The position numbers and the translations under genes were made by a program. Positions 1,448-61,442 of a stretch of DNA of 64,000 bases are shown piece by piece (positions within the stretch are counted from its first letter, which is position 1; the number at the start of each line of letters is the position of its first letter). Origin of the DNA: Eledone cirrhosa. Its lineage: Eukaryota. The DNA lies in contig CAXHJY010000125.1 of the NCBI GenBank assembly GCA_964016885.1, positions 1-64,000 of the forward strand, given 5' to 3'. Under the pieces are notes generated by a model. The model was not told the DNA's origin, did no database searches, and saw nothing but the letters and a program-made list of their open reading frames with translations.

Positions 1448-1578
1448 ATGGAAAGTTATATTTAAATTGTTGGGTTACAACTAGTAAATATTTATAACTG
1501 ATATAAAAGCACTCAACAAGTATTTGGAGTATATTTACGATATTAAATAAATGGAAACTATATTTATAAAACCATATT

Positions 1579-1644
1579 TATTTCATTATATATATTTCAG
1601 GGATATCATATTAACAATATGTTATGCCTTCCTCAGACAAAATA
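1579..1644 (-). ncRNA. Type I hammerhead ribozyme (minimal stem III) in PLE A pseudo-LTR
   Basis: minus strand TATTTTGT-CTGAGGA-AGG..CCT-GAAA-TATATA-TA-ATGAAATA; stem I and stem II pair. Confidence 0.8.
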
Positions 1645-3184
1645 CAATATAGACAGTTTTATAGATAAATAGATTTGACATACCGTTCAACATTGACTTG
1701 TATTTGAAAAAGTTGATTTGGCAGTGAAAAATTGTAAACAGAAAGAAAGAAAGAGAGAAAGAAGGAAAGAAAGAAAGAAAACGAAGAAAAAGAAGAAAAA
1801 GAAGAAATGCATGCAACAAAATAGAGAGATGGAAAGATAGATAAAGAGAAGAACTTCATGTAAAGAAACAGAGAGAGATATATATAGAGAGAGGAAATAG
1901 ATAGAGATAGATATATATAGAGAAAAGTAGGTAGTTGGACATCCGTTGAATGAACGTATCAATGATACATTTATTTATTTATTTATTTATTTAGCTCTAG
2001 TATTAATGTAAGGGAGATATATGTGGTTAGGAAAGAAACCAGCCGTTATATAGAGAGAAAAATGAAAAGTAACCAGACATAGGCGAGGCATAGTTTAAAA
2101 ACCCTATGTTTAATGTAGAAATATTAGTACGTATAAAAACAGGCACTATAATGTAAATATCAGTATTCCTGAATGAGACACGTATCCATAATGTGTGAAA
2201 AGTAATGATCTTATGTCTAGTTTTAAAAATTCATATGTTTATATGATAACTACAAACATCGATGTGAATTTACGTGATCAACTCTGCAAACCCCTATTTC
2301 ACACGGAGAACATTCTCATTGTCATTGTGCTATAAACATTTAAGTATACATATATGTGTATATATATACACATATATATAGAGTCCTATATTAATTTTAA
2401 CAATACTATTCTTGTCTTTACTCTACATGATTATCTATCAAGTAGAAATAGAGAACAGATTTCAATATATTAATAAAAAATATCAGAAACAAAAACAAAA
2501 AATAATAATAATAATAATAATAAATAATAATAATAAACAAATAAATAAAATAGAAAACTAAAAAATAAAAAATAAAAAAATAAAAAATAAAAATAAAAAA
2601 TAAAAAATAAAAAATAAAAAATAAAAAATAAAAAATAAAAAATAAAAAATAAAAAATAAAAAATAAAAAATAAAAAATAAAAAATAAAAATTAAAAAAAA
2701 TAAAAAATATTACATATTAAAAATAAAAATATTAAAAATATTAAAAAATATTAAAAAATATTACAATAAATAAAAATAAAAACATAATAGAAACATAATA
2801 TGCCACGCATATCGACCACAAAGATCAACCCTTCAAAATTAATTGACAATATATTGCCAAGTTCATTATAAGCATCAGAGTCGAAAACAGATGAAGCTAA
2901 AAATTATTTACCAAATCGCGTCTAGCAAAAATCATTTCAAAAAGTTTAGGATGCCCATTTGGTCTACATATGTTCTTATATTTAATATAGAAGTTTATCT
3001 AGTGTAACGTTTATTCGAAATATTTGGAGCAATCAACTTTTAGGGTAGTTTAATTTTTCATGAAGAATGTTTAAATAAAAATAAAAAGAAGAATAAAAAG
3101 AAGAAATCGAAAGATTTATCGGCTAGTTTCCCAAATAATTATAAATCAAACTAAATATACTACATTTTAAATTTAAATTTATAT

Positions 3185-5374
3185 TTAAAAGTTGAGTTTA
3201 ATCTATGTTTGCAGCAACTGAATAAATTTGTCCGTCGATTAAGGGAATTTTTAGATTTTAGTATAAAGAATATCTCCTCTGCGCAGAGGTCACATGTCTC
3301 AGAGGATGAATTAAAAGGAATCCCTCTTGAGACTATATTCCAAGCCGTCGAATATCTAACGTTATCTTGCCTAAGTTGCCAGAGTACGCCTGATAGTGCT
3401 GTTGAAGATTTTTTGCTTGGATCTGTGAAAGAATTCTTGTGGTTATTATAGCGAAGTTTAAATTCCGTCGATGTGGAACCGACGTAGTTAAAAGAATTAA
3501 AGTCAGTTTTAACATTACAATTGTATATTATATTTTTAACTAAGCAGTTGTTATTTAACGGACATTTAGATCTATCTCTACAGTTACATTTAACTTGTAT
3601 ATTATTTATGCTATTATCGCTAGGTTTTAAGTTCCTATTATTTATTCTATTAATATTTTGTGCTAAATTTTTGGTGGATGAGTAGGTTAATTTTATAGTA
3701 TGTCTATTGAAAATTGAGTGATACCTATGTGTTCTAGGGAAGCGATTATCAAGAGCTTTAAAAAAATAGTTTAGCGATGTGGGTTTTAATGTTTAGTGAG
3801 AAAGGGGGGGGCAAACCATATTATGTTCCTAGTTCTATTTCTTTTTTGGCTTTTGGAATTATTGTAATGCTTTCTATTATAGTTGTTAAGGTTGTTGCCG
3901 TAATTAAAATAGTTGTTATTTTGTTTAGTTTGTCTATCATTATCTATGTACATAATCTTATCACTATATCCTGCTCTAGCTAACGCTTCATTGTAGTACT
4001 GGGCTTTTTCGTCGAAAATCTTTCTATTAGACGAGATTCTAGAGATACGTTTTTTGAACAGAGTTTACTATAGTGTTTTTGACAGATCTGGGGTGGTTAG
4101 AGTTAAAGCTGACATAGTTTAAGTTTTCATTCAACTTGTGAAAAGGATAGTGAAGACATGTGTTGAGATTTAATGTTATATCTAGGAAATTGACTATTCT
4201 ATGGTTGTTCTCAATTTCTATTTTAAGATTAAAGTAATTAAAAAAATTGTGTAATTTGTTTTCTTTTTCTATTTAGTTCAGAGTTATTATTATCAATAAG
4301 TAAAAGCATGTCATCTCTATATAAACCTCCGGTAGTACCAGGTATTTTCCTATGTAGCGAATTGATTAAAAATAAGCCCACAAGGTCAGTTACCTGAGCT
4401 GAGTCGGATGATCCCATAGTAATGTCAAAATTGCTATCTCTATCTGCTCTGGTCCATAGTTGGTCATTAAATTCTATCAATGTTTTCCTAGCCGATAATA
4501 TAATGTGCATTTCATTGCTAGTTAGGTCTGTATGTTTGAATGCGTAATTTAGTGCCTTATTTAGTAGATTAGGGGTAATAGAAGAATAATAGTTAGCAAT
4601 ATCAAGTTGAATAAACTTATTATTATTGTTATATTTAATTTGCTTAAACCACTCAACAACCTCTCCAGTTCCCTTCCACAAGCTCAGGTTAGGTAAACAA
4701 TCCAAGTTCTTAATTTGCTGTATCACCCTGTCAAGAATGTTTTTGCTTAATTTGCCCAGGTCCGATTTTGATGGTGCGATCAATCTAACTGGCAAGTCAT
4801 TTTCAAAATTCCTTTTGTGATCTTTCATATTGATCTTCGGTTTCCTGGGCACGAAAGGTTGTGTTCTGTTCTCAATTTCCAACTCGTGCATTATACAAGA
4901 TGCTTCGACATTCATTTTCTCAAGCTCGGCCTTATCTGCTACCTTGTACTTTTTCCTCAGTTCCTTCAGTATGAGGCCATTATACATGTCTTTCTGCACT
5001 CCATAGAGGTTGTTGGTCTTGTCAGATTTCACCAAGATCTTCTCAGTTTTCTCTAAGCTCTCAATATTATCCTTAATGCCTTTCAGATATTCCTGGCCTT
5101 TGAAGTTTCTCTTGAATTTGACCCCTTGTATGATAGAAATTATATCGTTTTCAAAGTCAGATAAAAGTTTGTTAGGGGGTGGATTTCTTTTAGATTTGAA
5201 AACTTTGTTTAAGTCCGAGACATTTTCATTTATATTAGATTTATCAAAGTGGAATGCTCGCCACCTGATTCTCCTTATAAAAGAGTCAGATTTATCTATT
5301 AATTGTTTTATAAAGTCTTTGTTTCTAGGTAGAGGTATGTCTTTTAAAGAGGAAGTAATCTTAAAGAATTCCAT
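3185..5374 (-). pseudogene. PLE reverse transcriptase + GIY-YIG endonuclease, frameshifted
   Basis: SLKDIP..RIRWRAFH N-terminus; FIQLDIANYYSSI, FDITMGSSDSAQ, GLYRDD RT motifs in ORF 4238-5374; downstream frames give CNCRDRSKCPL, NIIYNC..YVGST, CDLC, CCKH, stop at 3185. Confidence 0.9.
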
Positions 5375-5552
5375 TTTTTCAGTTATAATATAAAGCGCTC
5401 AACAGTATTGGAGCAAGATACATGGAAAGTTATGTTTAAATTGTTGGGTTACAACTAGTAAATATTTATAACTGATATAAAAGCACTCAACAAGTATTTG
5501 GAGTATATTTACGATATTAAATAAATGGAAACTATATTTATAAAACCATATT

Positions 5553-59700: not shown

Positions 59701-60025
59701 TATATATTCATATATATATATATATATATATATATATATATATATATTCATATATATATATATATATATATATATATTCATATATATATATATATATATA
59801 TATATATATATATTCATATATATATATATGTATATATATATATATATATATATATATATATTCATATATATTCATATATATATATATATATATATATATA
59901 TATTCATATATATATATATATATATACATTCATATATATATATATTCATATATATATATATATATATATATATTCATATATATATATATATATATTCATA
60001 TATATATATATATATATATATATAA
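53704..60025. repeat. Interrupted (TA)n satellite, TATTCA variant, ~6.3 kb
   Basis: direct inspection; internal flipped segment ~58768-59230. Confidence 0.97.
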
Positions 60026-61174
60026 TTTAGGTGTGTATACATTTGCTTCGTTTTGTAATTTCCGGTTGATTGTTTTTATTTACCACTCACTGTCTGGCTT
60101 TGCTCATCCACACATGTCTGTCTACTAACCTTGAAATTATAAGTATTTATTTATTTATATATTATATGCCTATTTTTAAAATATATTACATTATGATATA
60201 GATCCTTAATACTTACCGTTTATTATATATAACATTAAGATAGTTAAACTTTATATTTTTTAATATTTTTTATATTTTTATATTTTAATATTTTAACATT
60301 GTAATATGTAACATTATTGTATTTAGACTTTACATATCTTGTTAGATGTCTATATTTTTTCTGTAACAACATATTTTTTCTGTAACATCATAATTGTTCC
60401 CTGTACCAATATAGTTTTTTTGAGTATTATTGTATTATATTATATGATTGATATTTCCCCATTTATTATGTAACCTAGTATGAATCATGTTGTACATATT
60501 GATTATGGTAATTGTTAATATAATGTTAACAATTTATCATTGTATTTCACTGTGACATCTATATTGTTTCTGTAAATTAACCGGAGATTATATATATTCT
60601 TATTATATATATCCTACTTTATTATATTGTATTATATTATATAATTTTGTTGTTTATTATTTATTATAAGTGTTTCTTGTAATTATTGCCTCATGTATAT
60701 TGGGTAGATGTATTAGCATTATTTTCACTATTACCATGCTTATTTTTATATTTTTGATGTTCAAACTTCCAATAGGGCTTAATTTCTGTGTAATAGAAAA
60801 TAGATATGTGTATTGTAATATGTGTGTGTGTGTGTGTGTGTGTGCGCACATATATACATGTATATATTGTACCTTTTGATTTTTGATTTGGAATTTCAGT
60901 GTTGGTATAGATATATTGTTATTATAATGTATTATACTGTGTTATATATAATTCCTGCTCTATATAACCAAATTTGTTTAGATTTAAGTTGGTGACTTTG
61001 GACTATATTTGTAATATGGTTCTTAATGTTATCTACATCCTTAGTTATTATAATTTTATTATTTTTATCTTCATTTTTATTATCGTATATCCTTGTAAGA
61101 GATTAGTGTATGTAAACTCCATATTCTTCAGAGTTTCTGGCTTGTATCTGCCGAAATTACCTCTTGTTGTTTTG

Positions 61175-61219
61175 ATTGCCCTGATGAGTCCTTAATAGGA
61201 CGAAACATTGTCGGCTAAT
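61175..61219 (+). ncRNA. Type I hammerhead ribozyme (minimal stem III)
   Basis: ATTGCC-CTGATGA-GTCCT taat AGGAC-GAAAC att GTC-GGCtAAT; predicted cleavage after 61212. Confidence 0.9.
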
Positions 61220-61442
61220 AAAAACTTTTGATGTATTAAAGGATTCTTTGTTTTACTCTCTTAATTTTTCGGCTCTGTTTAACTGCATTGAGTTATACCT
61301 TTTACTGTCATTTCTATAATACGAAGAGGGTGTTTGACTCAAACACGCTCCAGTATTCTAATCCTTGTAACTGCTCCCAATAGGTTGAGCTTACTCACAT
61401 ATATACTGGCATTTTGGCCTCTATATATTTTTATCTGACAGT

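Follow-up and report, generated by a model that had tools for sequence, protein, structure and literature searches.

The 64,000-nucleotide stretch of Eledone cirrhosa DNA analysed here (contig CAXHJY010000125.1, positions 1 to 64,000; hereafter the window) contains retroelements of several families that share a small bulged hairpin, the subject of this report. The window has 27% G+C and about one third of it is simple repeat. Among its (TA)n runs lie Penelope-like elements (PLEs) of the Hydra type, designated A, B and F, other PLEs (C, D and E), one long interspersed nuclear element (LINE), one Gypsy element, and several units that bear a hammerhead motif and lack an open reading frame (ORF). 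A is a two-armed insertion (1448-7574) with a left end of hairpin-2 type and a right end of hairpin-1 type, as defined below; its ORF starts at 5374 on the minus strand and is frameshifted in the window copy. A second, two-armed A fragment occupies 44596-45307. B (32578-38644) is also two-armed, with its left and right ends of the same respective types and a broken ORF, and F is represented by an open reverse transcriptase (RT)/GIY-YIG ORF (61443-63998, plus strand) of at least 852 residues that continues beyond the window. RWR, a variant of the N-terminal RWK motif, is present in A, B and F; DKT, a modified DKG, is present in A and F and was not found in the broken B copy; and a CNCx5C linker with YIG or YVG downstream occurs in intact sister copies of A, in B and in F. 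Pfam did not recognise the Hydra proteins. (TA)n is the insertion target of these three elements. A putative type I hammerhead precedes the ORF of F (61176-61215, plus; Rfam RF00163, E 6e-4, under the gathering score), and a core pattern scan predicts a hammerhead-like motif in A (5553-5623, minus), with further copies at 1579-1646 (minus), 7464-7531 (plus) and 44639-44706 (minus); a hammerhead of B was looked for and not located. In the parts of its description that concern the clade (Craig et al. 2021, PMC8557442), Hydra elements are marked by RW(K/R), DKT, CxCx5C, a C-terminal GIY-YIG domain, a hammerhead and (TA)n targets. Judged by these motifs and by likeness, by eye, to published Hydra proteins, A, B and F are Hydra-clade PLEs.

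The ORF-less units comprise several families. A 628-nt hammerhead retrozyme is present as 1.7 units (18413-19475, plus), with hammerheads at 18509-18589 and 19137-19217 that are predicted to fold as such; a 544-nt hammerhead retrozyme is present as 1.4 units (27146-27909, plus), with a hammerhead-like motif at 27571-27646; and a fragment of a 593-nt retrozyme (41855-42155, plus) carries a hammerhead-like motif identified by pattern (41895-41982), with a core variant that we take to be U3:A8 in the conventional numbering. The cores of the 544- and 593-nt units are assigned by pattern, their minimum free energy (MFE) folds differing or the folded segment being incomplete. These three units are tandem monomers whose longest ORFs span 32-44 codons. 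A fourth unit, termed 21k (21169-26038, plus; 3' end at 26038), has an uncertain hammerhead, and within it is inserted a Gypsy-type long terminal repeat element (21540-25752) with an open 884-residue pol ORF.

The shared motif consists of a 4-bp stem (GCUC/GAGC), a 2-nt bulge on the 3' side, a covarying pair and a variable stem-loop; its consensus order is GCUC, one pair, the variable stem-loop, the bulge with U first, GAGC and usually then ACU. The Hydra elements carry two such hairpins. In A, hairpin 2 (GCUC-C..G-UU-GAGC; 5397-5414, minus) lies 22 nt before the ATG and is the top match (E 5.5e-5) to a covariance model described below, and hairpin 1 (5485-5504, minus) is an A-U covariant with ACUC/GAGU arms that is matched by the model and by the ends of sister copies. 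Copies of A hairpin 1 recur in the 3' terminal repeat (1511-1530, minus) and, reading ...GTCGAGT, in the second A fragment (45224-45243, plus). Hairpin 2 of B (35450-35533, plus) has a long loop, is a partial model match and begins 4 nt past an insertion junction at 35445; its hairpin 1 (ACUC-U..A-UU-GAGU; 32629-32704, minus) has a long variable loop, stands 4 nt past a junction at 32709, and keeps its arms in sister copies while the loop diverges. F has hairpin 1, a U-A variant with a G.U terminal pair, at 61272-61293 (plus), and hairpin 2, supported by the model and by sister ends, at 61373-61390 (plus). Among the four ORF-less units just described, all on the plus strand, the 21k unit has hairpin 1, an A-U variant, at 21176-21197 and 25964-25985, and hairpin 2 at 21255-21272, where GAGC is changed to GACC in the window copy and intact in a sister copy (L053); the 544-nt unit has hairpin 1 (A-U and G.U variants) at 27286-27310 and 27830-27854 and hairpin 2 at 27369-27410, 3 nt past a junction; the 593-nt unit has hairpin 1 at 42064-42123, a U-A variant with an A.C terminal mismatch and a long inner stem, 5 nt past a junction at 42058; and the 628-nt unit has a hairpin at 18852-18873 (ACUC-G..C-UA-GAGU, with A-U and G-C covariants) that agrees with the MFE fold, and a degenerate second hairpin at 18942-18956 with a 3-nt loop and no UA tract upstream. 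The circular order of hammerhead, hairpin 1 and hairpin 2 is common to the ORF-less units and the Hydra elements. A search of Rfam 15 (E<=1) placed no family at any hairpin among the best 150 of 220 matches.

A first-pass annotation of the window had proposed that a GCTC-C..GTT-GAGC hairpin links the autonomous PLEs with the ORF-less hammerhead units. All nine strings that it cited are present where it placed them, that at 45224-45243 on the plus strand, and those at 5397, 1511, 45224, 61373, 35450, 27369 and 21255 are true sites; the motifs at 1511 and 45224 are real, being copies of A hairpin 1 and not representatives of independent families. Near 42104-42123 it had the 3' arm right and a wrong GTCCC 5' arm, the true arm being ACTCT at 42064. 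Its site at 19120-19138 we reject: the stem contains a mismatch and overlaps hammerhead stem I, and none of 22 sister-copy ends lies nearby, the true hairpin of the 628-nt unit being that at 18852-18873. The upstream twins at 61272, 32629-32704 (minus), 21176/25964 and 27286/27830 were absent from that account. The motif occurs more often than by chance. Within the window, GCTCN{6,36}TTGAGC has 7 matches (6 distinct 3' arms), compared with 0.16 +/- 0.37 in 100 shuffles. Across the 3.0-Gb genome, in counts inflated by repeat copy number, GCTCCN{5,25}GTTGAGC has 5,510 matches and its reversed control 1,014; the A-U form has 8,761 against 1,309; and the U-A form has 27,420 against 652, 22 of the first 100 U-A matches being a single unrelated high-copy repeat. 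The sequences flanking the hairpins cannot be aligned, in line with the earlier remark that they look unrelated: alignments among three Hydra terminal regions and four ORF-less units yielded nothing longer than 22 nt at E<=0.05.

The position of the motif is linked to the 3' ends of insertions. Its 137 sites fell into 39 clusters. In 17 of these, ends abutting (TA)n were in range, and 15 of the 17 families show an end that stops 0-10 nt short of the hairpin. Of the 241 ends in all, 93 stop 0-10 nt and 21 stop 11-40 nt short of it; 108 lie farther upstream, mostly 73-110 nt before the hairpin, which is the place of its twin; the stretch from 1 to 80 nt past its start contains none, and 19 lie at least 81 nt past it. 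In family A, 46 of 53 ends fall -1 to 10 nt before one of the two hairpins (3-8 nt upstream of hairpin 2; 5-10 nt upstream of hairpin 1). All 22 distinct (TA)n-abutting ends of the 628-nt family occur 4 nt upstream of its hairpin at 18852-18873, and in young, dispersed copies of retrozymes (98-100% identity) the ends stand 3-9 nt ahead of the hairpins that belong to them. Where A copies read through the hairpin-2 end, the junction is identical in 26 of 30 and no TA run has been captured. The fixed anchor of the motif is the 3' insertion junction, which it follows by 2-10 nt, and not the ATG or the hammerhead named in the first-pass annotation, the distance from hairpin to ATG varying from 20 to 58 nt.

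These properties extend to Hydra elements of other sources. We assembled 90 foreign loci by protein alone, from 77 metagenome and 13 genome contigs; they are probably animal DNA inside those assemblies. Thirteen of these Hydra-clade PLEs (L228-L240) sit in contigs filed as bacterial genomes, which are probably contaminated by animal hosts. Of 82 candidate N-termini, 13 that were out of frame, too short or outside the contig were removed; the remaining 69 represent 53 families. A hairpin occurs upstream of the ORF in 48 of the 53, compared with 2 of 53 within the ORF and 3.9 in shuffles; a reverse-complement control (25 of 53) was uninformative, the stem being self-complementary. By eye, one of the five families without it has variant bulges and four are seemingly 5'-truncated or rearranged. 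Two or more matches occur in 31 families, some second matches being spurious. Among 78 short matches, pair 5, which was left unconstrained, is C-G in 55, U-A in 20 and otherwise in 3 (Fisher p 2e-17), and on a tree of 42 proteins C-G and U-A were exchanged at least 8 times at hairpin 1 and once at hairpin 2. Pair 6 is formed in 45 of 61 and shows 28 double changes; it alone is informative in this count, pairs 1-5 having been pre-selected for pairing. Foreign sites also include U-A versions of pair 1 and A-U versions of pair 3, and the retrozymes carry A-U and G-C versions of hairpin pairs. A covariance model built from 73 foreign sites ranked true window sites first. TA or AT steps have frequencies of 0.47-0.70 at positions -8 to -5 of 77 foreign sites, compared with 0.05-0.23 at -40 to -18, and some 13 foreign loci show by eye an offset of 0-4 nt, with one exception. 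The motif can be recognised by eye in five of the six Hydra consensus sequences of File S7 of Craig et al. (PMC8557442), from two sea cucumbers, a coral, a copepod and, in degenerate form, an octopus; the sixth, as given there, is without its 5' end. A search of viral contigs found no relatives.

Most families have two hairpins and two ends. The 53 ends of family A fall into two classes of 24 and 29. In 13 families with a second end, the descriptor places a hairpin within the 10 nt after it in six; by eye, six more have an offset or variant hairpin and one has none. When both arms of an insertion could be assigned, one end was of each type: eleven mixed, none the same and two unassigned in family A; ten mixed, none the same and one ambiguous (by eye) in the 593-nt family; and two of two (by eye) in the 544-nt family, for a pooled 23 of 23 (p ~1e-7). 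The A insertion, the second A fragment and B in the window itself all have mixed ends. The 628-nt family, in 30 loci sampled by best matches, is single-armed with one end class, and the pairing of a degenerate second hairpin with no second arm fits the model after the fact.

Sharing of the motif is supported as specific to the Hydra clade. D, which is not of this clade, has three ends and E has two, and no Hydra-type hairpin follows any D or E end with a readable continuation; a read-through past the second end of E was not found, and a DNA search with the D 3' end gave no matches. The hammerhead unit termed 41k also has no hairpin after its first end, as seen in a single read-through copy. 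Two-ended priming looks general to these elements, with the hairpin as the Hydra form of its signal, and the 41k unit may use another PLE clade. D itself (45826-50900) forms a perfect palindrome of 2.5 kb. It has three alternative 3' ends, two of which are followed, by eye, by different small hairpins, one with a UUCG loop. E (28322-30687, minus) has a long 3' untranslated region that contains microsatellites of its own, and its two ends lie about 40 nt from each other; a scan of the element revealed no hammerhead core. The 41k unit (40833-41125, minus; L038:5317-6150) matches Rfam HH9 (E 2.5e-6); its two ends lie 70 nt from each other, and in place of the Hydra motif its tail has a long, perfect hairpin. 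Elsewhere in the window, a hammerhead-bearing 3' end with no ORF in its upstream 1 kb (26056-27140, minus) stands head-to-head with the 21k unit (3' end at 26038) within a single TA run; a short, near-perfect two-armed fragment (39819-40256) has a hammerhead-like core on each arm; and a LINE (9424-12120) retains an open 898-residue endonuclease-RT ORF.

A further motif, resembling GGCTG..TTTCTAG, lies 15-30 nt past hairpin 2 in ORF-less units (window 21294-21308, 27432-27446 and 18975-18989; loci L017, L023, L036 and L044). It occurs in 21 distinct contexts in the source genome and in none of the 90 foreign Hydra loci; it is possibly a promoter, splice or host-factor site, and its sharing is possibly a sign of one ancestor for many retrozyme families. 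Retrozyme monomers, including that of locus L299, also contain TGACGTCA (window 19012-19019) and a TATA-like element, which, if our naming of the motifs is right, presumably represent internal RNA polymerase II promoters.

The evidence from ends, covariation and arms supports the central proposal of the first-pass annotation, a conserved cis signal common to autonomous PLEs and ORF-less hammerhead units, and favours two of its suggested roles, RT recognition and priming. We consider it likely that the hairpin, borne on the RNA template, is a binding mark that sets where the Hydra RT starts. Because its place is past the last base copied and the target does not contain it, the hairpin must be carried by the RNA at priming. 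In the scheme that we envisage, the Hydra protein would bind the hairpin and its GIY-YIG domain would nick (TA)n DNA; the freed 3' end would pair with the UA tract 5-8 nt before the hairpin, and synthesis would run upstream. Two enzymes, perhaps a dimer, could each take one hairpin, so that both ends of a single break are primed; the head-to-head arms and the PLE tail would result. Since the 3' copy has no hairpin 2 downstream, the RNA copied would be either a circle cut by the hammerhead or a tandem transcript; the unchanged junction at hairpin-2 ends (26 of 30) likewise implies a circular or tandem template. By carrying the same hairpins, the ORF-less hammerhead retrozymes may be able to use Hydra enzymes, so that mobilisation of the non-coding units by these PLE RTs, as had been suggested, is a reasonable reading of the sequences. 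The units keep the order of hammerhead and hairpins and otherwise have little in common with Hydra ends, which is what deletion derivatives should look like, and the retrozymes likely descend from Hydra elements, keeping only what copying in trans by Hydra proteins would require, the hammerhead and the hairpins. A fuller version, to which we would give slightly less than an even chance, is that twin hairpins on a circular RNA constitute an address at which two Hydra RTs dock and prime both ends of a (TA)n break, so that any ribozyme circle with the hairpins gets written in.

Several observations weigh against this interpretation. The motif descriptor was written only after the motif had been seen, and family A is over-represented in the pooled count of 241 ends. 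A C.A "mismatch" pattern likewise exceeds its control across the genome (4,526 against 492); the matches listed come mostly from a few families whose bulge is apparently larger, so that a bulge of 2 nt is no strict rule. Isolated hairpins fold weakly (z-scores -0.6 to -2.3), the stems at 42064 and 35450 differ from the MFE folds, and the foreign-site covariance model missed the ACUC-type hairpins of the 628- and 593-nt units at E<=2. The foreign locus L179 ends 32 nt past a hairpin, and two of 30 A copies and the foreign loci L155 and L235 start directly at one. In five two-armed insertions of the 593-nt family, one of the arms ends at another place, and a predicted second end before 18942 was not found among 22 ends of the 628-nt family. 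D also has mixed-end arms (4 of 6) with the motif absent. Finally, many retrozyme families cannot be counted as independent origins, because they share the GGCTG..TTTCTAG-like motif.

Other explanations account for parts of these data. The hairpin might direct an RNA cut a few bases upstream, by a host nuclease, an element protein or the RNA itself, from which the RT would start in the manner of a LINE; the same fixed offset and the same covariation would follow, yet cutting alone does not explain why arms come one of each (23 of 23), cutting at hairpin 1 would deprive the hairpin-2 arm of the template end that it needs, and the RT of Poseidon, in the portions of its description relevant here, starts internally without cleavage (PMC11167929). 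We judge this unlikely. A promoter, the third role offered by the first-pass annotation, or a 5'-end mark, with terminal repeats arising from an RT jump from the RNA 5' end to the 3' end, would suit a motif placed 20-58 nt before the ATG, and the A and foreign copies that begin at the hairpin are as it would predict. It is disfavoured because other 5' ends are scattered (59-1070 nt upstream in A) and because the signal covaries as an RNA stem, its compensatory pairs and spacers of 4-75 nt suiting RNA and not a DNA site; moreover, the identical read-through junctions capture no TA run, and the ends before hairpin 1 fall within the unit. We regard it as very improbable.

The hairpin of ORF-less units could instead be a mere leftover of Hydra ancestry, the units spreading by local tandem amplification or by other RTs. 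Their circular order does match that of Hydra elements, and Li et al. (2026; 10.64898/2026.07.22.740005), in the part of their report on origins, derive retrozymes from PLE terminal repeats; but an inert relic would not lead young dispersed copies to end 3-9 nt before their own hairpins, nor would its stems covary where flanks no longer align, and this explanation, too, has only a slight chance of being right. Slighter still is the chance that the motif regulates how the Hydra ORF is translated or spliced: it is located in the 5' leader, and the TTTCTAG-ending motif downstream of it in ORF-less units resembles a splice acceptor, but the hairpin is kept in units with no ORF longer than 32-44 codons, and its distance is fixed to the insertion end and not to the ATG.

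The hairpin as an RT start signal bears on how the RTs of PLEs, the sister group of telomerase, choose an internal start, on the origin of the tail and inverted arms, and on which enzyme mobilises animal retrozymes. With a covarying motif of 20 nt and a fixed start offset, all three questions are testable by a few point mutants. The hairpin also offers a sequence tag by which retrozymes can be matched to a partner clade, and hints at a small RNA handle for an enzyme that inserts at (TA)n. If true, the twin-hairpin address would serve retrozymes as a portable start code specific to one clade, and would account for both the inverted arms and the Penelope tail.

Two known systems offer analogies. 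The 3' stem-loops shared by short interspersed elements (SINEs) and LINEs let a non-autonomous RNA retain the RT-binding stem-loop of its partner, and in the template region of telomerase RNA a short RNA-DNA pairing primes synthesis beside a bound RNA structure. Unlike either, the Hydra signal lies downstream of the copied end, acts from an internal position and occurs in twin copies; no homology is claimed. A, B and F resemble published Hydra-clade elements in motifs, inverted arms and a tail at one end (PMC8557442); the main text of that description, which attributes the tail to endonuclease resolution, does not use the words "hairpin" or "stem-loop", and the twin hairpins are visible in its consensus file and go undescribed in the relevant sections. 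The literature searched, exclusive of Repbase entries, of the supplement to Li et al. (2026) and of supplementary figures to PMC11167929, yielded no description of the hairpin. The main account of the Poseidon PLE of Anolis (Frangieh et al. 2024, PMC11167929) reports internal initiation at two sites bounding the tail, extension of both strands, an AT-rich target and a predicted dimer, and priming by two enzymes at two hairpins is consistent with those start sites, the two-strand extension and the dimer. The present elements differ from Poseidon, as described there, in that the start lies just 5' of a duplicated, sequence-conserved, bulged leader hairpin, which occurs across the Hydra clade and in non-coding units. 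The latter resemble the metazoan non-LTR retrozymes in being ORF-less tandem units, with a putative hammerhead where those have one of type I; for such retrozymes, published reports propose PLEs as the mobilising partner (PMC7229834; PMC7761336; 10.64898/2026.07.22.740005) and, for other animal retrozymes, record circular RNAs (PMC7229834). Whereas one of these accounts, in the part concerned, describes animal retrozymes as without a conserved motif pointing to a partner (PMC7761336), the units here carry such a motif, and it points to the Hydra clade. The elements are thus of known kinds, and the hairpin is a real, clade-wide feature, probably a variant of the internal initiation already known in PLEs.

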